DNA from: Nanobdellota archaeon
GTDB taxonomy: Archaea > Nanobdellota > Nanobdellia > Woesearchaeales > GW2011-AR9
Direction: 5' to 3'
Assembly: GCA_038045005.1 (NCBI GenBank)
Contig: JBBSYZ010000015.1
Coordinates: forward strand, 1-55,269
DNA length: 55,269 nucleotides
In this document: one piece after another, positions 4,034 through 54,510 of the stretch
Layout of the letters: each line of letters starts with the position of its first letter
Position numbering within the stretch: position 1 is the first letter of the stretch
Notes under the pieces: generated by a model
What the model was told of the DNA's origin: nothing
Database searches by the model: none
What the model saw: the letters and a program-made list of their open reading frames with translations, nothing else
Translations under genes and position numbers: made by a program

Positions 4034-4112
4034 TTTATCTTGCGATATTCACATTAAAAGAACCAGAAAGCTACGTATTTTGATTGGCGGATAATGGCTT
4101 TCTGTTTCTTTT

Positions 4113-4274
4113 ATGTCCCAAAGTGCGGGGTCAAGAAAGCGCCTTCTTTTTTAAACTAATTTATTGTAAGCTTTAGTACGTAGTTAGGAACTTTCAAGAA
4201 ATATGAAAACTATCATATTTCTGAACTGAAAACAGATCGTTGTCGGTTTTCATTTTCCCGCACTTTTAGGACAT
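4113..4274. repeat. Foldback element, copy 1 (arms shared with 8251-8458)
   Basis: The arms are ATGTCCCAAAGTGCGGGG (4113-4130) and TTCCCGCACTTTTAGGACAT (4255-4274), and they are complementary. The same arms occur at 8251-8268 and 8441-8458. The interior differs between the two copies except for the shared mini-element. Confidence 0.8.
4195..4254 (+). mobile_element. 60-nt tandem-hairpin mini-element, copy A
   Basis: Sequence CAAGAAATATGA-AAACTA-TCATATTTCTG-AAC-TGAAAAC-AGATCGTTGTCG-GTTTTCATT, flanked by TT on both sides. 59/60 identical to 8381-8440. Confidence 0.7.
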
Positions 4275-7639: not shown

Positions 7640-7736
7640 ATATTTTCCTAATCCGGAAAGATTAGCCATAGTTGGCAAAGGAATATTGACAAATTTTCAG
7701 AAATTTTTTTAAATAAACGTGTATTCTGTAGTATAT

Positions 7737-8171
7737 ATGTCAAAAACAAAGAAAACTGTATGCGCCGGCGGAGTAGTGTTGAACGAAGAGGGCTTAGTGC
7801 TAGTAGTTAATTCTCGCGGAAATTCATGGTCTTTGCCTAAAGGGCATCTGGAGAAGGGAGAAAGTCCTCTTGAAGCAGCGGTGCGTGAAATCCGAGAGGA
7901 ATCTGGAGTGACTGAACTTGATTTAAAGGGTTATATAGGCAGCTACAGTCGGTATAAAAGAAGCGCCAACGGCGGAAAGGGCCGGACAGAACGCAAGAAA
8001 ATCCATTTATATCTTTTCAAAACCACTCAGCGTGATATTTATCCTTTGGACTGCCATACGCAAGATGCGCGTTGGGTTCCCAAAGAGCAGGTTCCTAAAT
8101 TATTGGCTCACAAAGAAGATAAAAAATATTTTAAGCGAGTGGTGCATGGATTGTATGGTTTTTATTTTTGA
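7737..8171 (+). CDS. NUDIX hydrolase
   Basis: Nudix box GHLEKGESPLEAAVREIREESGV. ATG at 7737 preferred over the GTG at 7719. Confidence 0.85.
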   Translation: MSKTKKTVCAGGVVLNEEGLVLVVNSRGNSWSLPKGHLEKGESPLEAAVREIREESGVTELDLKGYIGSYSRYKRSANGGKGRTERKKIHLYLFKTTQRDIYPLDCHTQDARWVPKEQVPKLLAHKEDKKYFKRVVHGLYGFYF

Positions 8172-8204: not shown

Positions 8205-8458
8205 AAGGACGGATAGCTCCGCACTTTAGTGCGGAGTATCCAGCCCTTTTATGTCACAAAGTGCGGGGATTAGAAAGCCCAAAATAAAGCAACGACTTTA
8301 TTTGGGCACAAACGAAATCGTTGTTTCGTTTTGTGCGTCTCTTTTCAAGCCTCGCTCTTTAGAGCGAGGTGAGACGCTTTCAAGAAATATGAAAACTATC
8401 ATATTTCTGAACTGAAAACAGATCGTTGTCGGTTTTCATGTTCCCGCACTTTCATGAC
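8205..8458. repeat. Nested palindromic region including foldback element copy 2
   Basis: Hairpin GGATAGCTCCGCAC-TTTA-GTGCGGAGTATCC at 8210-8241. Foldback arms at 8251-8268 and 8441-8458. Internal hairpins are CCCAAAATAAAG...CTTTATTTGGG, CAAACGAAA...TTTCGTTTTG and GCGTCTC..CCTCGCTC-TTTA-GAGCGAGG..GAGACGC. Mini-element at 8381-8440. Confidence 0.8.
8381..8440 (+). mobile_element. 60-nt tandem-hairpin mini-element, copy B
   Basis: Identical to 4195-4254 except the last base (G versus T). Flanked by TT on both sides. Confidence 0.7.
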
Positions 8459-8516
8459 TTGCTTCTGACGTACTTTCTTAAGAAAATTATTATAGTTCAT
8501 TTGACTATGCTTGGTT

Positions 8517-8927
8517 ATGAAGCTTACCCAATGCGCCGGCGGCGTGGTGCTGAACAAAAAAGGTTTGATTCTGCTGGTAAGTCAGCGCGGAAATTCATGG
8601 AGTTTTCCCAAAGGGCATATTGACGAGGGGGAAGAACCTTTAACTGCTGCCAGAAGAGAAATACGGGAAGAATCTGGAGTGACTGACCTGAAGCTGATTA
8701 AGGAATTGGGCAGTTATGGGCGGTATAGGGGCGGCTTAGACGGCGGCGATGACCCTTCTGAGTTTAAGACCATACATATGTTTTTATTTTCCACCGATCA
8801 AGAAAAACTTCAGCCTCAGGATCCCTACAATCCTGAAGCGCGCTGGGTTGACAGAAAAAAAGTCGCAGAACTGCTGACCTTCGGAAAAGATAAAGAATTC
8901 TTTAGAAATGTTGCCCGCCAAATATAA
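8517..8927 (+). CDS. NUDIX hydrolase (paralogue of 7737-8171)
   Basis: Nudix box GHIDEGEEPLTAARREIREESGV. The N-terminus CAGGVVLNKKGLILLV parallels CAGGVVLNEEGLVLVV of the upstream paralogue. Confidence 0.85.
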   Translation: MKLTQCAGGVVLNKKGLILLVSQRGNSWSFPKGHIDEGEEPLTAARREIREESGVTDLKLIKELGSYGRYRGGLDGGDDPSEFKTIHMFLFSTDQEKLQPQDPYNPEARWVDRKKVAELLTFGKDKEFFRNVARQI

Positions 8928-21495: not shown

Positions 21496-21978
21496 TTTCT
21501 TAGTTGAAGAAGGCTTGCGGAAAATTCTTCAGAAAGCGGCTAAGAAAGACAAAGTAATGTATGAAGCAGTTATGAAAAAGTTTGATGAGATCATTTTTAG
21601 CGCAGATGTTGAACATTATAGAGAGTTTTGAATAACCCTTAAATCCGAATGTAATCTCGCAGATTTATTCGTAAATTCAAAACACTCAAAAATGCTAAAA
21701 GCATTTTTAGTGTCCAAGAAAAGCCAACAGCTTTTCTCAGGACTCTATAGAGAACTTTGAATAGTGCTCAATGAAACAAAGATTTCATTGGCACTTAAAT
21801 GAAGTAGTTTCTTCATTTATAGTTTTTCAAAGTTCTCTATAAAAATTTACGGGCTCCTTTACAGGAATTTAAGCGGGTGCATATCAAAGGGTCTTTCGTT
21901 TTAATTTTCAAATACCTGCCTTCCGAGGACAGGATTATCTTTTTTGAATTAGATCATCATGATAATATTTACCGCTAA
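21488..21978 (+). pseudogene. RelE/ParE-like toxin gene interrupted by a 221-nt insertion
   Basis: Exon-like part 1 (21488-21619) reads MHNFLVEEGLRKILQKAAKKDKVMYEAVMKKFDEIIFSADVEHY. Part 2 (21841-21978) reads KNLRAPLQEFKRVHIKGSFVLIFKYLPSEDRIIFFELDHHDNIYR. Removing 221 nt restores one 89-codon frame. Confidence 0.75.
21621..21837. mobile_element. Composite MITE-like insertion inside the toxin gene
   Basis: Flanked by TATA (21617-21620 and 21838-21841). The outer ends are GAGAGTTTTGAA and TTCAAAGTTCTC. The inner 88-nt unit at 21750-21837 has perfect 12-bp terminal inverted repeats (TIRs) GAGAACTTTGAA/TTCAAAGTTCTC, its own TATA at 21746-21749 and two internal hairpins, one with loop TAGTTT. Confidence 0.75.
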
Positions 21979-21984
21979 ACAAGC

Positions 21985-22081
21985 GGCTCTGTGGAAAAAG
22001 TCGCAAGAAAACTGAAAACTATGGTATTTCTGTGCAGAAATAAGGTTTCCTTATTCTTGCGGCGACTTTTTCCACAGGGCC
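21985..22081. repeat. Palindrome carrying a mini-element
   Basis: Arms GGCTCTGTGGAAAAAGTCG and CGACTTTTTCCACAGGGCC enclose the 56-nt element at 22004-22059. Confidence 0.75.
22004..22059 (+). mobile_element. 56-nt tandem-hairpin mini-element, copy C (degenerate)
   Basis: Sequence CAAGAAAACTGA-AAACTA-TGGTATTTCTG-TGC-AGAAATAAGG-TTTC-CTTATTCTTG, flanked by CG on both sides. Confidence 0.6.
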
Positions 22082-22146: not shown

Positions 22147-23460
22147 ATGATGCCCGTAAAATCTACTGTAAATGTTAAGAGTTCTTCCGAGAGGCCGCTT
22201 TCAAATGGTCTAAAAGCAGTTTCTTCAGTTTTTCGCAGCAAGATGTTCATAATCGCCGTGATTGCCGTAGTTGCGGTCATCGGATTGGCATTATTATTGC
22301 TTAATGCCGACAAGCTGGTCGGCAGGGCTTACACGTTGCAGCCTTCTAAGACTCTTGTAGTGACGCAGATAACTCCTTCATGCACAGCAGCGCCTGCCGG
22401 TTTATTGCATTGGTGGAGAGGAGAATCAACTCCTGAGGATTCGGTAGGCGGACTCAATTTAAATTATTATGGTGGAGATGTTGGCTATGTAGCTGGCAAG
22501 GTCGGCAATGCATTTTATTTTAGTGGTACAAATTCTATCGCATATCCTGTCGGGGGTTCAATAGATTCTGCAAGTCTAGCAGATCAAATTTCAGTCGAGA
22601 TGTGGGTACGTCCCAACAGCAATTTAGGTGATATTCGTCCCTTTATGAATGTGGGTGATTTTAAATTCATGGTTCAGCATGATGATCTTCAAAATAATAA
22701 TAAAGTTGAATTAAAGGCGTCATTTACAGATGGCACAGTTATTAGTGTCTTAAGCGAAAATCCTTTGCCGTTAAACGTCTGGACGCATGTAGTGGGAATA
22801 TTTGATGGAAACTCCGTTAAATTGTATATAAATGGCATAAGGCAGAATTCCAATTTAATGTATCTAAATGGAAAGAAGGCTTCAGTTACGGGTACTCCAA
22901 ACATTAGAAGGAACAACCCTATATCCCTGATTGACGAAGTTTCAATATATAATACTGACATCTCTGCTTATGTTGCAAAGTTATACAATGCCGGAAGTTA
23001 CGGAAAATGTGTGCCGCAGATAGTTTGCGGCAATGGCGTGAAAGAAGGAAATGAACAATGCGACGGCAGCGTACCTTTTGGCGCAAGTTGTCAGGTCCTT
23101 ACCGGTTCCCCAGGAATCTTAAGCTGTGGTCAAAATTGTAATCTTGACACTTCCCAATGCGGAGTCCAGCAGGATACTGACGGAGACGGCGTGGCTGATA
23201 ATCTTGAGCCCGTCAATTGCCTTGGCGTGGCCGGGAATGTTTACAGCAGCGGAACTCTTGCAGGTTGTTTAGTCGGTGATGTCACCAGCGATGGTTGTGT
23301 AGGTCTTCCGGACATAGCTGATATTGGTCCAAACGTTGATCTGAGCTGTGTTTCAGGAGGGAAAACTGCTGAACAGGGAGATATTAATGGCGACGGCTGT
23401 GTAAATCTTGTAGATATAGCCCAGATAGGCCCTAATGTTGATTTACAGTGTGGAGGTTAA
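22147..23460 (+). CDS. Membrane-anchored surface protein: LamG/ConA-like domain, Cys-rich repeat, Ca-binding D-x-D-G-D motif, two dockerin-like repeats
   Basis: N-terminal TM FIIAVIAVVAVIGLALLLL followed by DKLVGRAY. The LamG_3-like stretch runs GKVGNAFYFSG...EMWVRPN...WTHVVGIFDG...LYINGI. The remaining modules are CGNGVKEGNEQCDG, DTDGDGVADN, GDVTSDGCVGLPDIADIG and GDINGDGCVNLVDIAQIG. Confidence 0.6.
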   Translation: MMPVKSTVNVKSSSERPLSNGLKAVSSVFRSKMFIIAVIAVVAVIGLALLLLNADKLVGRAYTLQPSKTLVVTQITPSCTAAPAGLLHWWRGESTPEDSVGGLNLNYYGGDVGYVAGKVGNAFYFSGTNSIAYPVGGSIDSASLADQISVEMWVRPNSNLGDIRPFMNVGDFKFMVQHDDLQNNNKVELKASFTDGTVISVLSENPLPLNVWTHVVGIFDGNSVKLYINGIRQNSNLMYLNGKKASVTGTPNIRRNNPISLIDEVSIYNTDISAYVAKLYNAGSYGKCVPQIVCGNGVKEGNEQCDGSVPFGASCQVLTGSPGILSCGQNCNLDTSQCGVQQDTDGDGVADNLEPVNCLGVAGNVYSSGTLAGCLVGDVTSDGCVGLPDIADIGPNVDLSCVSGGKTAEQGDINGDGCVNLVDIAQIGPNVDLQCGG

Positions 23461-23464
23461 TAAG

Positions 23465-24352
23465 ATGAAAAAACTAATTACCCTATTATTTGCCTTGACT
23501 ATTATTTGCTCATTTTCAATAGCGGCAAGCATTGGAGATGAAGGCCATGCCTGGATCAGTCCGGCAGTAAGGGAGGTTGGGGTTGGAGCTCCAGTATCTT
23601 TGATTCTTGGCGCCAATCCAGGGGGGACTAATGTATATACCGTCGATGTTGAATTGGTTTTTGACGGCAACAAGTTATCAATAACTCCCAATGATATTGT
23701 CATCCAAATACCGGAATGGTCGTTTCCAGTTAAGGAAGTTGTGGGGAATACCATTAAATTACAGGGTTATGATTTCCTGCACCCTTTTAGTGGTAGCAAG
23801 GATATTGCAACATTAACTTTCAACACCCTATCTACGGGAGTTGCATCTTTGACTCTTACTAAAGTGCTTCTTCAAAGCAATCCGGCAGTAATCACTATCC
23901 TTGAGAGCGGGCAGGTGACTGTCGTGGCGGCGCAGCCGCAGCAATGCACTGATTTAGACGGAGATAGTTACGGTCTGAATTGTCCGGCAGGGTTGGATTG
24001 TAATGACAATAATCCTAATGTTAATCCAGGTAAATTGGGAGAATTATGTGATTCTATTGATAACAACTGCAACGGAAATGTCGATGAAGGATACAATACT
24101 CTCTTCGATTTTGACAACTGCGGAGCATGCGGCAACGTCTGTTCACAAGGAGAGTCATGTTCACAGGGGGTTTGTGCAGCGCAGCCAGTGGATTTACAAG
24201 CAGTCTGCCAGGCAGCTGCAGATATTAATAACAGCAACGACCTAAATCTGCTCCAGGGAATCATAACTGCGATAAAAAACAATCCCGAAAATAGAATTGA
24301 TGCTACCATAGACATCTTTGTGGCATTGAATGCGTGGTTTGCGGCGCAGTGA
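23465..24352 (+). CDS. Secreted protein with cohesin-like domain and MopE-like Cys-rich metal-binding motif
   Basis: Signal peptide MKKLITLLFALTIICSFSIAAS. The cohesin-like beta module is VGAPVSLILGAN...YTVDVELVFDGNKLSI...IATLTFNTLSTGVASLTL. The Cys-rich motif is DCNDNNPNVNPGKLGELCDSIDNNCNGNVDEG. Confidence 0.5.
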   Translation: MKKLITLLFALTIICSFSIAASIGDEGHAWISPAVREVGVGAPVSLILGANPGGTNVYTVDVELVFDGNKLSITPNDIVIQIPEWSFPVKEVVGNTIKLQGYDFLHPFSGSKDIATLTFNTLSTGVASLTLTKVLLQSNPAVITILESGQVTVVAAQPQQCTDLDGDSYGLNCPAGLDCNDNNPNVNPGKLGELCDSIDNNCNGNVDEGYNTLFDFDNCGACGNVCSQGESCSQGVCAAQPVDLQAVCQAAADINNSNDLNLLQGIITAIKNNPENRIDATIDIFVALNAWFAAQ

Positions 24353-24400
24353 TGCTCCGGAAAATGAGCAGAAATATACACATTTCAGAAAATGTGAACC

Positions 24401-26116
24401 ATGAAAAGAAAAATAAAAAAAGTGTACAAATCTTTGCCGCCGCATAGCAATGAAGCTCATCCTGTCGCCAATGCCGGGCAGGCCAGCAAGCCTTTCATCA
24501 TAGCAGTAATCACCATAGTCGCGGTCGTCGCTCTTACTTTGTTATTACTATTTTCTGATCGGTTGGTGGGAAAAGCATTTTATACCGGGGAAGCAAATAC
24601 TGCCGGAGCAAGCTTGCCATCGTCTGCAGTGGAAGGGCAGCCTTTTATGGTAGCAGTCAAAGCTAATGTAGGAAGCAATCCCGCAGCAGCAATATCTTTT
24701 GAATTAACTTTTCAGGATTGGTATGGATCATGTCCTCAAATTTTAGATTTATTAAACTGGCCGGTTAAAAGTGTTTCTTGTGATCCTACTTTAAAGACCG
24801 TGAAATACACCGCCGTAACTAATAGTCCTGTATCAGGAGAAATCAATATCGCTAATCTGGTTTTTCCCGGTACTGGCACCGGCTTAGGTGATTTTTTTAA
24901 TTTTGATTTAAATTTAGAAATTAAAAAACCGACTAAAGAACCAATTAACCTTGCTGTTCAGAGTCCTTTCAGAGTTGATATAGTTTCAGCACTTGTCTGC
25001 GGCGATGGCATTATTGATGAAACTGAAGAATGCGACGGTCAGAACCTTGGTGCTGCTTGCACCGATATTTTTGGATTCACTGGCGGAGATCTTTCTTGTT
25101 CCCCGAGCTGCACTTATGATACTAGTGCTTGTCAGACTGAGCAAGTACAACCTGCTGTCTGCGGCGACGGTGTAGTAAGCGGGGATGAAGTTTGTGATGG
25201 TCAAGATTTTGCCGGAGCAACCTGCAGCAGTCTCGGATTTGCTAGTGGAAATCTTTTATGCGCTCAGAATTGTCTATATGATGCTAGCGATTGTATTCAA
25301 CAGCTTCCTGTTGCATGTGGCGATGGGGTCTTAGGACAAAACGAACAATGCGACGATGGAAATCAAGTTTCTGGCGACGGTTGCACAAGTTGTGTAACAG
25401 ATTATTGCGGCGACGGAGATATTAATCTTGACACCACTATTAATAGCATGGATCAGTGTGATGACGGCAACAACGTAAATGAAGATGGCTGTTCTGCATT
25501 ATGCTTGCAGGAAACTGGTTGGTCGTGTGATGGCGAACCAAGCATATGCAGTGAAGTACCCTGCGGCGATGGCATTGTAGATGAAACTGAACAATGCGAT
25601 GACGGTAATGTTGTGAATGGTGACGGCTGTTCTGCAACTTGTCAGACAGAACAGCAGCAGATATGTTCACCTAACCAATGGTCTTGCGAAGGGTTGAATG
25701 CAAAAAAACAATGCAAGTCTGATGGGTCAGGCTATAATACACCCGTAAGTTGTGCAGTTAATGAATTCTGTGAAGCGGGCGTGTGTAGCGCTCAACTTAT
25801 CCAGCCACTGATCGTCCAAGGCACAAAAATAACTTTAACCGATGCAGATACCGAAGTTCCTGCTCTGGTAGCTACTAAAGTTACTCCTATTATATCATTC
25901 AGCACTGAAATAACTGTTTATACGGTCTTGTACGGACAGAACAACAAAGTGCTTTCCATAAAATCTGAAAAGATAGAAACTGGTTTAGCGCAGGGTACGC
26001 ATTATATGGCTATCGTCAATTATCCGCTGGCGAATGTCAAGAGCAAATCGGTGATAGTGTATGATGTGGAACAGGCTCCGACGGTGTTCGGGCAGCTGCA
26101 GAAATCGTATGAATAA
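24401..26116 (+). CDS. Membrane-anchored surface protein with cohesin-like module and about six CGDG-type Cys-rich repeats
   Basis: N-terminal TM FIIAVITIVAVVALTLLLL followed by DRLVGKAF. Repeats include CGDGIIDETEECDG, CGDGVVSGDEVCDG, CGDGVLGQNEQCDDGN and CGDGIVDETEQCDDGN (myxococcal-type Cys-rich repeat). Confidence 0.6.
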   Translation: MKRKIKKVYKSLPPHSNEAHPVANAGQASKPFIIAVITIVAVVALTLLLLFSDRLVGKAFYTGEANTAGASLPSSAVEGQPFMVAVKANVGSNPAAAISFELTFQDWYGSCPQILDLLNWPVKSVSCDPTLKTVKYTAVTNSPVSGEINIANLVFPGTGTGLGDFFNFDLNLEIKKPTKEPINLAVQSPFRVDIVSALVCGDGIIDETEECDGQNLGAACTDIFGFTGGDLSCSPSCTYDTSACQTEQVQPAVCGDGVVSGDEVCDGQDFAGATCSSLGFASGNLLCAQNCLYDASDCIQQLPVACGDGVLGQNEQCDDGNQVSGDGCTSCVTDYCGDGDINLDTTINSMDQCDDGNNVNEDGCSALCLQETGWSCDGEPSICSEVPCGDGIVDETEQCDDGNVVNGDGCSATCQTEQQQICSPNQWSCEGLNAKKQCKSDGSGYNTPVSCAVNEFCEAGVCSAQLIQPLIVQGTKITLTDADTEVPALVATKVTPIISFSTEITVYTVLYGQNNKVLSIKSEKIETGLAQGTHYMAIVNYPLANVKSKSVIVYDVEQAPTVFGQLQKSYE

Positions 26117-29583: not shown

Positions 29584-29676
29584 GGGGCCATAGTTCAGAC
29601 TGGGAGAACACATGGCTGAAGAGTAATGGTTTACTACGAAACCATGACGTCGTGGGTTCAAATCCCACTGGCCCCA
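29584..29676 (+). tRNA. tRNA-Phe (GAA) with 19-nt intron at the canonical 37/38 position
   Basis: Acceptor GGGGCCA/TGGCCCC with discriminator A73. D arm GTTC-AGACTGGGA-GAAC. Anticodon stem CATGG/CCATG with loop CTGAAG^A interrupted by AGTAATGGTTTACTACGAA. T arm GTGGG-TTCAAAT-CCCAC. No encoded CCA. Confidence 0.9.
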
Positions 29677-29778
29677 CATTTTTCTAATGTTTTAATTTTG
29701 ATTAATTCCATCTCCGCAAATTCTATCTCCGTATTTTCTCGGATAACATTTAAATATATTCCATCTCCTCCAACGAAT

Positions 29779-45455: not shown

Positions 45456-45576
45456 CACTCGAAAGGAAAACTATCCTTTCGGTGTGCAAGAAATGAGACA
45501 AATATCTCATTTCTGCACTGAAAATAAGTATTCTCTTATTTTCATGTGCCGGAAAAGTAGTTTCTTTTCCCAGCAC
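45456..45576. repeat. Four-hairpin nested repeat in the long nrdJ upstream region
   Basis: The outer unit is CACTCGAAAGGA-AAACTA-TCCTTTCGGTG ... CCGGAAAAG-TAGTTT-CTTTTCCCAG. It is split by the 60-nt mini-element at 45487-45546. Confidence 0.75.
45487..45546 (+). mobile_element. 60-nt tandem-hairpin mini-element, copy E
   Basis: Sequence CAAGAAATGAGA-CAAATA-TCTCATTTCTG-CAC-TGAAAATAAG-TATTCT-CTTATTTTCATG, flanked by TG on both sides. Confidence 0.7.
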
Positions 45577-50067: not shown

Positions 50068-50340
50068 ATGAAACTATATGATCCAGAAGTTGAAAAAGCT
50101 GTCGCCAAGATCAAGGAAGCCAAAGCTAAGACCGTCTGCATCCAGCTGCCGGACGGCATGAAACCTGCTGCGAAAGAGATTGCCGATAAGATCGAAGCGG
50201 GAACCGGCGCTAAAGTATTGATCTGGCTGGGCAGCAATTTCGGCGCCTGCGACATACCTTTTGGATTGGACCGGATGGGCGTAGAAATGCTTATCAGCTG
50301 GGGCCATAACCGGTTTCATAAGAAAGCAGGTGGATGGTAA
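50068..50340 (+). CDS. dph2: Diphthamide synthase Dph2, N-terminal domain fragment
   Basis: 90 aa. AKTVCIQLPDGMKPAAKEIADKIE...SNFGACD...MLISWGH matches Dph2 domain 1, including the first cluster Cys. Confidence 0.7.
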   Translation: MKLYDPEVEKAVAKIKEAKAKTVCIQLPDGMKPAAKEIADKIEAGTGAKVLIWLGSNFGACDIPFGLDRMGVEMLISWGHNRFHKKAGGW

Positions 50341-50381
50341 GATGTGGTCGGCAGGCAGCATCGCGGGTGGAGCATAAAAAC

Positions 50382-51128
50382 ATGAAGATTTTACTCCTAG
50401 ACGCGCCGTATTCAGGTTCGGTTGAACTGTGCAAGGAAACTATCGCTTATCTGAAAAAAAAGAAATATCAAAAAGTCGCCTTGTACGCTTCCGTGCAGTT
50501 TGTGAACAAATTAGATGCGGTAAAAAAACAGTTGGCCGATAATAAATTTACTGCCATCACTTCTCTGGCAGATAGAGCTGATGTGAAAGGGCAGCTGTTA
50601 GGCTGCGATAATTATCATGATTCCCTGCACCTTGAAAAGCATGATTTTGACTGCTATCTATACATCGGCGATGGGAAATTCCATCCCTTAGCCTTGGTCT
50701 ATGCACAGAAAGGCCGGCCGGAAGCGAAAGAAGTGGTCTGCGATGATCCGCTGGCGAAAAAGATGTCGCTGATAACCATCGATGATATTAAAGCCATCCT
50801 TAGGAAATACCGCGCTTCGCTGATGAAGTTTCTCGCGGCTAAAACCGTGGGAGTGATAATCACCATCAAGCCGGGCCAGGAGCAGTTCCGGCCGGCAGCG
50901 GATTTAGAAAAGCGGTTTCCTGAAAAAAATTTTTACTATTTTATAGACAACGTGGTTTCATTTGATCAGCTGGAAAATTTCAATTTCATCGAGGTCTGGG
51001 TAAATACTGCCTGTCCGAGAGTCGGATTTGATGACCAAGAGAAATTCTGGGGGGGAGTCATCAACCTGAACGATGCTTTTCTGGCTGAAGAAACGCTGGG
51101 CAAAGAAAGCGTGATGAACAAGATTTAG
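50382..51128 (+). CDS. dph2: Diphthamide synthase Dph2, domains 2-3 fragment
   Basis: MKILLLDAPYSGSV...GQLLGCDNY...YIGDGKFHPLAL...VWVNTACPRV. GGTGGAG Shine-Dalgarno site 8-14 nt upstream of ATG 50382. The track start at 50334 is an alternative. Confidence 0.7.
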   Translation: MKILLLDAPYSGSVELCKETIAYLKKKKYQKVALYASVQFVNKLDAVKKQLADNKFTAITSLADRADVKGQLLGCDNYHDSLHLEKHDFDCYLYIGDGKFHPLALVYAQKGRPEAKEVVCDDPLAKKMSLITIDDIKAILRKYRASLMKFLAAKTVGVIITIKPGQEQFRPAADLEKRFPEKNFYYFIDNVVSFDQLENFNFIEVWVNTACPRVGFDDQEKFWGGVINLNDAFLAEETLGKESVMNKI

Positions 51129-52592: not shown

Positions 52593-52862
52593 ATGGCAGA
52601 AGTTGTTGCAAAAGTAGGAGTTAAGAAAGTTAAGGGTTACCTTTATTTCGTCGACAAGAAAGGTAATGTCGCCCGCGCTGCTATGAGCAGGGCCGGAAGA
52701 AAGAAAGGTAAGGCAAAAGTAGAAGTTGTCGCTAAAGCCGGTGTCAAGAAAGTGCCTGGATTTCTGTATTTTATCGACAGCAAGGGGCATGTTGCCAGAG
52801 CGATGATGGCTCGCGGCAGGAAAGGCAAGAAAAAAGGCGGCAAGAAGAAGAGAAGAATTTAG
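52593..52862 (+). CDS. Small highly basic protein made of two tandem ~40-aa repeats
   Basis: Repeat 1 is VVAKVGVKKVKGYLYFVDKKGNVARAAMSRAGRKKGK. Repeat 2 is VVAKAGVKKVPGFLYFIDSKGHVARAMMARGRKGKKK. GAGGTG Shine-Dalgarno site upstream. Confidence 0.65.
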   Translation: MAEVVAKVGVKKVKGYLYFVDKKGNVARAAMSRAGRKKGKAKVEVVAKAGVKKVPGFLYFIDSKGHVARAMMARGRKGKKKGGKKKRRI

Positions 52863-53029
52863 AGAGATTAGAATAACCTTAGTTTAGCAGATATTTATCG
52901 TTCAAATCTCTCTAATAGTGTTTTGAAAGGCATTGCAATTCAAAACACCCTTTAATTTTTTTTCTCTTTTTTCTTTTTTAATGTTTTAAGATCTTATGTT
53001 TTTCTGGCATTTAATATCTTCACCGGCAC

Positions 53030-53257
53030 GGGCTAATATGAAACCCTATGCTTCGCAGGTCACTAATAGTCTCGCTAAACCGATGTTTTACGTCGTTGGT
53101 CGGCGTTCCCCGTACATGAAATTAAGAAACTACTTAATTTCAGTACAGAAAATCAATAGTTTTTGATTTTCTTGTAAGGGACAAGCCCCTTGCCGACGTG
53201 AATGTGATTTTTGAACACGCTCGGAAAGGGTTAGTGACCAAGGGTTTCATATTAGCC
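53030..53257. repeat. Foldback MITE-like module, left of the IS (166 nt plus a 62-nt insertion)
   Basis: The 17-bp ends are GGGCTAATATGAAACCC and GGGTTTCATATTAGCC. Bracketed by CCGGCAC at 53023-53029 and 53259-53265. The interior is the reverse complement of the 54234-54399 interior. Confidence 0.8.
53115..53174 (-). mobile_element. 60-nt tandem-hairpin mini-element, copy F (filled site)
   Basis: The plus strand reads CATGAAATTAAG-AAACTA-CTTAATTTCAG-TAC-AGAAAATCAA-TAGTTT-TTGATTTTCTTG, flanked by TA at 53113-53114 and 53175-53176. The homologous position in the other arm (54316-54317) has a single TA and no insert. Confidence 0.8.
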
Positions 53258-53267
53258 TCCGGCACTC

Positions 53268-54216
53268 TATTATCCCGAAACTGGTTTACATCACGAAAGT
53301 GGTTTACACTTTAACTCCTCCCAAACTTCTTTTGGAGTCTTATAATAAAGGCTCATGTGGAGCCTTTCTTCATTATAATGCTTAACAAAATCTCCAAAAG
53401 AAGAAAATGAGCCGGTAGCAAATTCTTCTTTGTACGTTCTGAAGAATCGTTCTACTTTACCATTAGTTTGTGGCCTATTCACCCTCGCTAAAGAATGTTT
53501 TATTCCTAAAACATCTAATGTTGCTCGAAACATTGTATTTTCTTGCTTTGCATTAGGATGATTTGAATAATATTGCGAGCCATGATCAGTCATTACGGCT
53601 TTTGGTTTACCCCATTCAGCTATGCCTGAATGCAAGAGAATAAGACTATTTTCTGCTGTCTGTCTTTTGAACACGCCATGGCTTGTAATTAAGCGTGTTC
53701 TATCATCTATATACACGCTGACATTCGTTCCAGAGAAAGGGTCGTATGACCAATCAGTATGCCACAGATCATTTGGATTTGGAAGTTCGTAACGAACCCA
53801 CTTCCTCGATTTTTGTTTCTTGATATTTGGCTCAACCATTCCATTTCGCACTAAAACTTTCTCTATTTGTCTGTGCGAAATAGCAAATCCTTTTCTCTTA
53901 AGGATTTGCTCAATATGGCATGCGCCATAACGGTGTCTTCGTCTAATATCGAGTATGATTTCAACAGCAGTTTGGTTAAGAATTGTTTCTGAACGACCTG
54001 TTTTATGGTCTTTTAAGCCGTCCCAACCAAATTCTTTGTAAGATCGCACGATTTTTGAAATTGCCATACGGCTGATTCCTTGAGAAAACGCAATTTTTGT
54101 TGTAGAAACACCATTCAACTTTTGCTTAACAACCCATACACGTTTTTTAAAATTAAGTTTATACATATAACCTCACCAAGAGGTTATATTAGATGTAAAC
54201 TAAAAACGTGATACTA
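53268..54216 (-). mobile_element. IS481-family-like insertion sequence
   Basis: The imperfect 25-bp TIRs are TATTATCCCGAAACTGGTTTACATC (53268-53292) and the reverse complement of 54192-54216, TAGTATCACGTTTTTAGTTTACATC. It carries a single DDE transposase gene. Confidence 0.65.
53291..54166 (-). CDS. DDE transposase/integrase (rve core), IS481-like
   Basis: N-terminal HTH. Catalytic motifs are WHTDWSY, MTDHGSQYYS and TNGKVERFFRTYKEEF. Confidence 0.85.
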   Translation of the reverse strand: MYKLNFKKRVWVVKQKLNGVSTTKIAFSQGISRMAISKIVRSYKEFGWDGLKDHKTGRSETILNQTAVEIILDIRRRHRYGACHIEQILKRKGFAISHRQIEKVLVRNGMVEPNIKKQKSRKWVRYELPNPNDLWHTDWSYDPFSGTNVSVYIDDRTRLITSHGVFKRQTAENSLILLHSGIAEWGKPKAVMTDHGSQYYSNHPNAKQENTMFRATLDVLGIKHSLARVNRPQTNGKVERFFRTYKEEFATGSFSSFGDFVKHYNEERLHMSLYYKTPKEVWEELKCKPLS

Positions 54217-54233
54217 CATATCTTCACCGGCAC

Positions 54234-54399
54234 GGGCTAATATGAAACCCTCGGTCACTAACCCTTTCCGAGCGTGTTCAAAAATCACATTCACGTCGGC
54301 AAGGGGCTTGTCCCTTACGGGGAACGCCGACCAACGACGTAAAACATCGGTTTAGCGAGGCTGTTAGTGACCTGCGAAGCATAGGGTTTCATATTAGCC
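54234..54399. repeat. Foldback MITE-like module, right of the IS (empty for the mini-element)
   Basis: Same 17-bp ends as the left module. Bracketed by CCGGCAC at 54227-54233 and 54401-54407. Preceded by the same ATATCTTCA as the left module. Confidence 0.8.
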
Positions 54400-54510
54400 A
54401 CCGGCACGAAAACATTTATATATGAGCAGGATATATTCTATCGTTGAAAACTAGTATTAAGTAAAAAGCTAGTAGTAAAGTTATTAAAAATAAAACGAGG
54501 TGTGAAATAA

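Follow-up and report, generated by a model that had tools for sequence, protein, structure and literature searches.

The 55,269-nucleotide contig JBBSYZ010000015.1 of a Nanobdellota archaeon (assembly GCA_038045005.1), here termed the window, carries two near-identical inverted modules on either side of an insertion sequence (IS), and the 62-nt difference between them is a genuine filled/empty pair for a 60-nt element composed of two hairpins, the hairpin doublet. It is reasonably probable, on a joint reading of all observations, that this pair lies in a locus built by three insertions, that the 60-mer is a non-autonomous mobile element and that a single-strand, base-pair-guided mechanism is the most likely means of its movement. 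When the right module (54235-54399) is reverse-complemented, the left module (53031-53257) aligns to it with 162 identities in 165 positions and a single gap of 62 nt, which corresponds to the 60-nt unit plus one TA and is present in the left module alone. The left module reads ...GGCGTTCCCCG-TA-(CATGAAATTAAGAAACTACTTAATTTCAG-TA-CAGAAAATCAATAGTTTTTGATTTTCTTG)-TA-AGGGACAAG, while the right module reads GGGGCTTGTCCCT-TA-CGGGGAACGCC, its one TA (54316-54317) being placed inside CCCT-TA-CGGGG and, on the other strand, in a GTAA loop. Compared on the same strand, the filled copy is CCCCG-TA-[60 nt]-TA-AGGG and the empty copy CCCCG-TA-AGGG. A repeat search returned the inverted pairs 53174-53257/54235-54318 and 53031-53114/54316-54399, of 84 nt each and 98-99% complementary. 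The single gap in the direct alignment bears out the preliminary description of this stretch, which had recognized a filled left and an empty right module, and the 130 of 133 matching positions given there are close to the present count, made from one terminal inverted repeat (TIR) to the other.

The indel is in fact bordered by a direct repeat of 3 nt (GTA), and the boundaries are ambiguous by up to 3 nt from the window alone; the 2-nt boundary was adopted because it is fixed by approximately 100 other members of the 60-mer family. Chance is excluded, as the window contains the exact family pattern four times where shuffles predict 0.00. Misassembly, raised earlier as a concern, is answered in part: a Logan unitig from ERR3858126 matches 53228-54247 at 100% and joins a single-nucleotide polymorphism (SNP) specific to the left copy (GACCAAGGG) to the left end of the IS, but it stops short of the 60-mer, such that independent assembly support is partial. 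No independent assembly of the filled arm was on record when looked up through the spurious open reading frame (ORF) 52996-53166.

The 60-mer extends from 53115 to 53174 (covariance model hit 53111-53178, 82 bits) and comprises hairpin 1 (53115-53143, loop AAACTA), a central TA (53144-53145) and hairpin 2 (53146-53174, loop TAGTTT). The left flanking TA (53113-53114) pairs with the central TA, and the right flanking TA occupies 53175-53176. With its flanks the element reads TA-(CATGAAATTAAG AAACTA CTTAATTTCAG)-TA-(CAGAAAATCAA TAGTTT TTGATTTTCTTG)-TA. Each 29-nt unit forms a 12-bp stem with one bulged base and a 6-nt loop; the two units are inverted and separated by a 2-nt spacer, the loop of hairpin 2 being the reverse complement of the loop of hairpin 1. 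Within the window, matches to the fixed-length pattern CAWGAAA-N16-TTTCWG-NN-CWGAAA-N16-TTTCWTG begin at 4195, 8381, 45487 and 53115 (0 expected), and the pattern is found on at least 120 metagenome contigs, including Hainich assemblies and several JGI metagenomes. Judged by these matches, the family of the 60-mer comprises at least 100 distinct copies in sequence of the DPANN/Woesearchaeota type from groundwater archaea. The same pattern gave 0 hits in IMG/VR and a viral origin of the family was rejected on this ground.

Statistics for the family refer to the metagenome matches listed, which provide 110 unique 60-mers, 107 unique insertions and 96 unique aligned 68-mers. The stem bases CAWGAAA...TTTCWG are conserved and the loop loosely so, while the upper stems vary between copies yet stay paired. 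The N16 stretches, which the search left unconstrained, contribute 5 more base pairs around the 6-nt loop in almost every one of the 110 unique copies, just 38 of 1040 pairs in the N16-derived stems being non-Watson-Crick. Over the 96 unique 68-mers, 98.4% of cells are paired vs 76.2% in shuffles (0/500), and double-sided changes affect 14 of the 24 stem pairs. G-T and A-C mismatches number 13 and 11, respectively, and give no sign of selection on one RNA strand. The 5' arm is restricted to GAAA-W-N-H-R-R, and the loop to mAAmkA in hairpin 1 and its reverse complement in hairpin 2. The copy at 8381 and its orthologue at position 557 of locus L253, which have homologous flanks, differ by compensatory changes (stems TATGA/TCATA vs TATGG/CCATA). 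Of 146 hairpins, 132 are arranged in doublets with a constant offset of 31 nt. Reshuffling of hairpins between doublets cannot be claimed, as the stems come from a constrained set of 41 five-mers.

The dinucleotides that flank the doublet are identical on both sides in 99 of the 107 unique insertions (93%), in 98-99 the central dinucleotide reads as the reverse complement of the flank, and in 95 the three dinucleotides concur, whereas the direct repeat reaches a third base in only 1/107. The general layout is XY-hairpin1-Y'X'-hairpin2-XY, and empty sites keep one XY. Flank types comprise TG/CA (50), TA (16), CG (16), AA/TT (11) and AG/CT (6), and the two flank-centre pairs are paired in 96/96 and 91/96 aligned copies, with 48 and 46 double changes, respectively. 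YR dinucleotides, which pass into one another by single transitions, predominate, and this fits what would be expected of a paired position. Since the flank varies and complements the centre of the element, the flanking repeat need not be a classical target-site duplication. The earlier proposal of an insertion with TA duplication thus stands for its polarity, which is supported by the empty relatives described below, but not for the TA, which is not general to the family. Flanks tend toward R-XY...XY-Y, and a G-YR-C motif is recreated at the element centre and at both junctions, which fits the frequency with which doublets nest within the centre or loop of another copy (L199, L211, L145, L226, L189 and the window copy at 45487).

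Five copies of the module from the same lineage are empty at the insertion site, namely the right arm, L135 (80% identity), L070 (84%), and L016 and L098, with which the centre is shared. Identical copies of the 60-mer are present in L245 and L197. The L245 module possesses its own 9-bp duplication (AACCATCAC) and differs from the left arm at 24 of 165 positions (14.5%) in its arms and at 0 of 62 in the insert; the chance of 60 nt remaining unchanged at this arm divergence is approximately 1e-4, and the insert is thus younger than the arms. In L197, identity to the window is limited to TCCCCGTA...TAAGGG, and the host is an unrelated MITE (miniature inverted-repeat transposable element; TIR GGCTCTRTCC, duplication TTATTCTCC), relatives of which, in L078 and L152, are empty. 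These identical copies lend support to the earlier suggestion that the 60-nt unit moves as a discrete entity. The identical 60-mer sits in a CCCCG-TA-AGGG loop both in a diverged copy of the module and in an unrelated MITE, and insertion is thus site-selective. Taken together, the copies show discrete and repeated insertion and support a non-autonomous unit that moves as a whole. The right arm is most simply a never-filled copy; filled copies exist elsewhere, and the left arm may therefore have been copied from an already filled donor.

The search for other filled/empty pairs, advised in the preliminary description, returned more than 20 further pairs, in which reconstructed empty sites align ungapped to other loci (for example L213 vs L241, 96%; L142 vs L136, 94%; L152 vs L194, 93%). 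Homologues of a 283-residue Bro-N domain protein are interrupted by three doublets, each at its own codon and each with a resulting frameshift. The reconstructed empty sites are more structured than controls (minimum free energy of -15.2 vs -8.6 kcal/mol), and XY is located in a hairpin loop at 13% of sites vs 6% of controls. Strong targeting of hairpin apices was rejected, as this enrichment is just about two-fold.

The two modules that constitute the filled/empty pair each end in a perfect 17-nt inverted repeat, GGCTAATATGAAACCCT, which occurs four times in the window (0.22 expected). The left copy (53031-53257, plus strand) consists of 165 bp and the 62-bp insert, and the right copy (54235-54399, minus strand) comprises 165 bp in the opposite orientation and lacks the insert. 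Among GTDB species representatives, more than 118 loci contain 16 nt of the TIR, mostly in Woesearchaeota or Nanoarchaeota metagenome-assembled genomes (MAGs) from many sites and often at contig ends. TIR pairs bound two kinds of element, one of 123-278 bp with related or unrelated interiors and the other of approximately 1020 bp, and 9-bp direct repeats flank nearly all of them. The 1018-1022-bp elements (L065, L092, L093, L129) display the same 17-nt TIR and 9-bp duplication, and the 304-308-residue protein of the larger kind matches DDE_Tnp_1 and the NCBIfam IS5 model (1e-10 to 4e-38). Because TIR and duplication are common to these IS5-transposase elements, the modules are classified by their ends as MITEs of an IS5-family (IS903-like) IS. 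They resemble other MITEs of this type in the 17-bp TIR starting with GGC, the 9-bp duplication, the lack of an ORF and the multicopy occurrence, and differ in a fixed insertion distance of 6 nt from an archaeal TATA-like box.

Folded as a single DNA strand, the 165-nt MITE adopts a branched foldback structure (-42.7 kcal/mol, z = -7.7), and the 60-mer entered the GTAA loop of a small CCCC/GGG hairpin within the central multiloop. The two modules had been described as arms flanking the IS, or as one foldback, with the 60-mer inserted into its loop. Their inverted, near-identical nature is confirmed, as is a loop target, but they are independent MITE insertions and the loop belongs to the internal hairpin rather than to the foldback apex. 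A GC-rich centre with small GNRA-like tetraloop hairpins (CCCC-GTAA-GGGG, CCC-GGAA-GG) is common to different MITE families (window 53105-53125 and 54305-54330, L016, L098, L192, L205, L197, L078, L152), and both GNRA-like loops are targeted by doublets in different MITE copies. In the nzgw56 MAG, a MITE of the same TIR family displays a 154-nt insert of four hairpins separated by TA (L061 947-1224 vs L099 4235-4358). Here a canonical doublet lies at the middle of a larger one from another family, and several families of hairpin-doublet elements may thus exist.

The IS between the modules extends from 53266 to 54218 on the minus strand (953 bp) and, in gene orientation, has the ends 5'-TGTAGTATCACG...GGGATAATAGA-3'; its transposase ORF occupies 53291-54166. 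The transposase scores E = 3e-61 and 207 bits against the IS481 model NF033577, just below the 224-bit cut-off, while rve and rve_3 exceed the Pfam cut-offs. The ends TGTA[G/C]TATC...GGGATAATAGA were set by nine related copies in different contexts, and three relatives possess 15-bp target duplications, the corresponding duplication in the window being TATCTTCACCGGCAC. Members of the IS481 family are described in ISfinder as approximately 1 kb in length, with ends starting TGT and direct repeats of up to 15 bp, and the IS is assigned to this family on sequence grounds. The right copy of the duplication (54219-54233, TATCTTCACCGGCAC), recognized from the duplications of relatives and the empty site, is intact, whereas the left copy (53015-53029) is parted from the IS by the left MITE, a remnant, TCCGGCAC (53258-53265), adjoining the IS.

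The gene to the left of the locus (52593-52862) is present on 21 other contigs, mostly from Hainich groundwater assemblies, and the spacing to the next gene is 269 nt in seven of the ten contigs shown vs 1648 nt in the window. A completely empty orthologous site, ...ATATCCTCACCGGCACGAAAACATTTATATAT... (...ATATCCTCACCGGCACGAAAACATTTATAT...), is found in these related strains and is regenerated when the IS and both MITEs, each with one copy of its duplication, are taken out. Positions 53014-53047 and 54218-54251 are direct repeats that cover the module ends and 17 nt of flank, yet the module interiors are inverted, since MITEs in opposite orientations entered each copy of the IS target duplication. 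A further unitig, in L007, joins the outer flank to the TIR. Comparison with the empty site thus shows that the locus was built by three separate insertions. The 953-bp IS481-family element inserted first, or at least before the left MITE, with duplication of the 15 bp TATCTTCACCGGCAC; a 165-bp MITE then entered each duplication copy at ACCGGCAC+N, in opposite orientations and with a 9-bp duplication each. The arms are accordingly paralogues that originated in independent transpositions from different donors, and the insertion of the 60-mer may therefore predate the arrival of its host at this locus, having occurred in the donor copy.

The right MITE is bracketed by perfectly matching 9-bp copies of ACCGGCACG (54226-54234 and 54400-54408), the second followed by AAAACA and the TATA-like TTTATATAT (54415-54423). 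For the left MITE, the left copy (53022-53030) is ACCGGCACG and its partner (53258-53266) is TCCGGCACT, with a 7/9 match, where ACCGGCACT would be expected on both sides; the duplication would be exact if the event had a 7-bp duplication and one carried-over base per side. More generally, IS5-family IS and MITEs with the TIR GGCTAATATGAAACCC are inserted exactly 6 nt from an archaeal B recognition element (BRE)/TATA-like box with a 9-bp duplication: among 136 unique flanks, 35 have a TTTA[TA] that begins 16 positions (offset 16) from the end of the element, vs 0-3 at other offsets (loci L013-L130). In the window, the 9-nt target ACCGGCACG lies between the divergent TATA-like boxes ATTTAAT and TTTATATAT, each 6 nt away (53009-53030, 54400-54423). 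This placement looks like promoter-targeted transposition, and no description of TATA-box-spaced insertion for IS5-family IS or MITEs was found in the literature searched.

Other architectures were considered for the locus. That 9-bp copies of ACCGGCACG bracket 53031-54399, and that related strains lack the whole 1378 bp, lends appeal to a composite transposon. Such an element, or an IS with 165-bp inverted arms, was rejected because the inner junction repeats the outer flank (54218-54234 = 53014-53030, 17 nt), and because the IS has its own ends and 15-bp duplication, known from relatives. An invertible segment between the 17-bp TIRs, or an intramolecular replicative inversion, predicts inverted flanks, which are absent, every copy of ACCGGCAC being direct. 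A 190-bp target duplication generated by the IS is needless once the 15-bp duplication is established.

In the mechanism proposed for the doublet, the hairpins would be recognized on a single strand, followed by cut-and-join as in IS200/IS605 and REP/REPIN systems, and the central dinucleotide would pair with the dinucleotide at the foot of each hairpin, specifying both cleavage sites and the target. Such guide pairing would account for the match of flank, centre and target and for the preference for structured or looped DNA and for the centres and loops of other copies. The ends of REP and IS200/IS605 elements are hairpins whose foot bears a guide that pairs with the site to be cleaved or targeted, and these systems use a single-strand enzyme without true duplication, REP dimers often being inserted in palindromes (PMC6006769, PMC3733652). 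By analogy with these elements, a single-strand, guide-type mechanism might hold for the doublets with a likelihood of roughly one in three. If the pairing operates, single transitions would re-target the element (TG<->TA<->CA<->CG). We regard as possible, if rather doubtful, the further proposal that doublets are a new class of base-pair-programmed DPANN miniature transposon with a shared 2-nt guide and an enzyme unrelated to known Y1 transposases.

One lead to such a putative enzyme is a Bro-N/DinD-like protein, itself interrupted by doublets at three different sites. Its gene, of approximately 285 codons, is the most recurrent neighbour of doublets, being found in 9 of 120 doublet-selected loci vs 1 of 118 TIR-selected control loci (L240 2142-2993, minus strand; L163, L172, L180, L191, L210, L237, L243, L016). 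Its occurrence around doublets recalls that of REPs in and around RAYT genes, but the protein has no known nuclease domain.

Several observations weigh against this set of interpretations. At this locus the 60-mer in the left arm rests on a single assembly, and the duplication of the left MITE is imperfect (ACCGGCACG/TCCGGCACT) at the two bases that touch the element, a mismatch that the three-step history leaves unexplained. The Y1 HUH motif [DN]H.H...Y..[NQ][QP] is absent from the six-frame ORFs of the window and 262 loci (approximately 1.8 Mb), and the fetched loci contain neither a longer or gene-bearing element with these ends nor a pair of single hairpins that encloses a gene. The guides of IS608 and REPs are tetranucleotides located 5' of the hairpin foot, in contrast to the proposed doublet guide, which would measure only 2 nt and extend the stem by plain Watson-Crick pairs, and the conserved GT[AG]G of REPs is not a feature of the doublet. 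The symmetry of the element conceals any strand bias of the kind that single-strand transposition should leave; a 2-bp staggered cut by a DDE transposase would likewise yield matching flanks, and the enrichment of hairpin-loop targets is only about two-fold.

That last type of enzyme underlies the alternative in which the doublet is a very small conventional MITE moved with a 2-bp stagger, its flanks being true target-site duplications as in IS630/Tc1-mariner or Correia elements. Identical flanks in 99 of 107 copies, with one retained in empty sites, are as expected of it, as are 7-nt terminal inverted repeats (CAWGAAA) in an element that starts 5'-CA...TG-3', the resemblance of TA-flanked copies to ends in which TA is followed by CA, and targets that favour YR steps within R-YR-Y. 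Duplication by staggered cutting cannot, however, account for the reverse complementarity of centre and flank in 98-99 of 107 insertions, with 46-48 double changes; TA makes up just 16 of the 99 matched flanks, unlike the strict TA specificity of IS630/Tc1, and no parent IS with these ends was seen in the fetched loci. A 60-bp duplex is also very short for a paired-end DDE complex, and we consider this explanation unlikely. A different account holds that both arms originally possessed the 60-mer and that a precise loss cleared the right one, by slippage between the GTA repeats or by excision. A direct repeat around a strongly hairpin-forming insert is a classic substrate for replication slippage, and the filled copy recurs in L245. 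This history is nevertheless decidedly improbable, as the arms are independent insertions with different donors rather than a duplication, the more distant copies L135, L070, L016 and L098 are empty, the same 60-mer resides inside an unrelated MITE, and the insert in L245 (0/62 vs 24/165 in the arms, a chance of approximately 1e-4) is younger than its arms. In the comparison with related genomes advised in the preliminary description, the locus of related strains is wholly empty.

The doublets could also be immobile structural or regulatory modules selected by the host (terminators, protein sites or RNA hairpins), spread by recombination or of recurrent origin. Compensatory pairing is kept between the orthologues 8381 and L253:557, the 5' arms are limited to GAAA-W-N-H-R-R and most copies are intergenic, all of which such modules would display. 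In contrast, identical copies in unrelated contexts share 6-8 nt of flank, too little for homologous exchange; insertions measure exactly 62 nt, with empty sites at hand; copies frameshift coding sequence and nest in one another; and neither an excess of G-T over A-C (13 vs 11) nor an Rfam match points to RNA. We judge host modules very unlikely. Least probable, to the point of being nearly negligible, is an assembly artefact in which the interior of the left arm was taken from another MITE copy during short-read assembly. The MITE is a dispersed repeat that breaks assemblies, with many matches at contig ends, and no assembly besides that of the window shows the 60-mer at this locus, the spanning-ORF look-up being empty. 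Against this, an independent unitig ties the left-arm SNP to the IS and L007 ties the outer flank to the TIR, L245 has the same filled architecture, and the filled/empty contrast among MITE copies would be real even if the interior were borrowed. Further identities were rejected for the 60-mer. Rfam searches, at gathering and E-value thresholds, gave only a tRNA at 29584-29676 and noise, which excludes a structured RNA gene. For an archaeal bulge-helix-bulge intron, defined by two 3-nt bulges on either side of a 4-bp intron-exon helix, the exon side has, by inspection, no 4-bp partner for the element ends, and the 62-nt insert breaks reading frames. The arm-spacer-arm layout brought integron attC or Xer/dif-like sites into consideration, but in these the junctions would lie beside the 6-nt loop, whereas here they are at the hairpin feet.

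Among known systems, the mobile doublet favoured here resembles the REP/REPIN elements that RAYT/TnpA-REP mobilizes in bacteria in its short imperfect palindromes with a bulge (within the 20-40 nt of the REP definition), its two inverted units, its high density, occurrence inside other palindromes and clusters, a foot sequence presumably tied to cleavage and the presence of differing stem variants within one genome (PMC3733652, PMC6006769). It differs in that there is no GT[AG]G or CGTC tag, the doublet foot being a variable dinucleotide followed by CAWG or CWG, with GTAC at the foot in TA-type copies only. The doublet spacer is fixed at 2 nt, the hairpins do not pair together, the host is archaeal, and no RAYT-like gene, in REP systems a single-copy Y1 HUH gene usually flanked by REPs, was found in the window and the 262 fetched loci (approximately 1.8 Mb). 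IS200/IS605 elements, a family common in archaea, and their MITE-like derivatives (PATEs) have hairpin ends, as the doublet has. Their internal guide that pairs with the site of cleavage or insertion, their short target, their lack of a classical duplication and their expected seamless excision would suit the complementarity of flank and centre and the single XY of empty sites, although a 2-nt, plain stem-extension geometry departs from that of IS608. Their left and right ends are distinct, their targets are tetra- or pentanucleotides and their guides lie 5' of each hairpin, while the doublet is two-fold symmetric with one shared 2-nt centre, and the fetched loci contain no TnpA/TnpB-bearing parent with doublet ends. 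Correia/CREE and IS630-type MITEs are likewise small, non-autonomous and hairpin-forming, and the window copy is TA-flanked and begins, after this TA, with CA; however, 16% of doublets are TA-flanked, their length is 60 bp vs 100-150 bp or more, and the complementarity of centre and flank has no counterpart in those elements. By sequence, therefore, the doublet seems akin to the REP/REPIN-PATE kind but not a member of it, as the defining tag is absent and no cognate transposase was found.

Full-text literature searches returned no description of hairpin-doublet elements in DPANN or other archaea, and the 60-mer family is apparently undescribed before. The archaeal MITEs covered by a 2024 review are confined to Sulfolobus, Halobacterium, Haloquadratum, Desulfurococcus and a small number of other lineages (PMC10969869). 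Mobile mini-hairpins such as REPs and REPINs are considered a trait of bacteria, while doublets occur densely and widely across the very small genomes of DPANN archaea in groundwater. They nest in themselves and in other MITEs and disrupt genes, and thus represent a real force in genomes usually called streamlined. The complementarity of flank and centre provides a directly testable hypothesis of guide-specified targeting, with approximately 100 natural variants at hand and the smallest guide yet seen. For annotators of these MAGs, doublets account for many of the hairpin clusters between genes and of the breaks between contigs.

At least seven doublet copies are located in the 55 kb of the window, as detected by the pattern and by a covariance model built from the family. 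Besides the 60-mer described above, both methods identify members at 4195-4254 and 8381-8440 (flanks TT, centre AA in each), while the copy at 45487-45546 (flanks TG, centre CA) lies between degenerate hairpins of like type at 45463-45486 and 45551-45571. More divergent members are found at 21763-21826, 8276-8339 and 22000-22063 (41-50 bits), and a partial member at 1-27 (23 bits) is cut by the window start. The copies at 4195 and 8381 each lie in one of two copies of a longer intergenic repeat (4108-4272 and 8246-8458; blocks 88-89% identical), of which the 8.3-kb copy also contains the divergent doublet 8276-8339 and is placed between paralogous NUDIX genes (7719-8171 and 8511-8927).

Next to the locus, the conserved gene at 52593-52862 encodes a lysine-rich protein of 89 residues with an internal duplication (VAKVGVKKVKGYLYFVDKKGNVARA/VAKAGVKKVPGFLYFIDSKGHVARA) and no Pfam match, conserved in the 21 contigs mentioned above, and in related strains a DUF4215-type protein adjoins the locus. 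Elsewhere in the window, a 93-nt tRNA at 29584-29677 (Rfam, 57 bits), which ARAGORN reports with the anticodon 'gaag' and cannot type, is probably an intron-containing archaeal tRNA. Genes for diphthamide synthesis are located at 50068-51128 and, with this tRNA, identify the window as archaeal, and repeated Cys-rich coding units (CGDG...EQCD) within large secreted proteins extend from 23025 to 25636.

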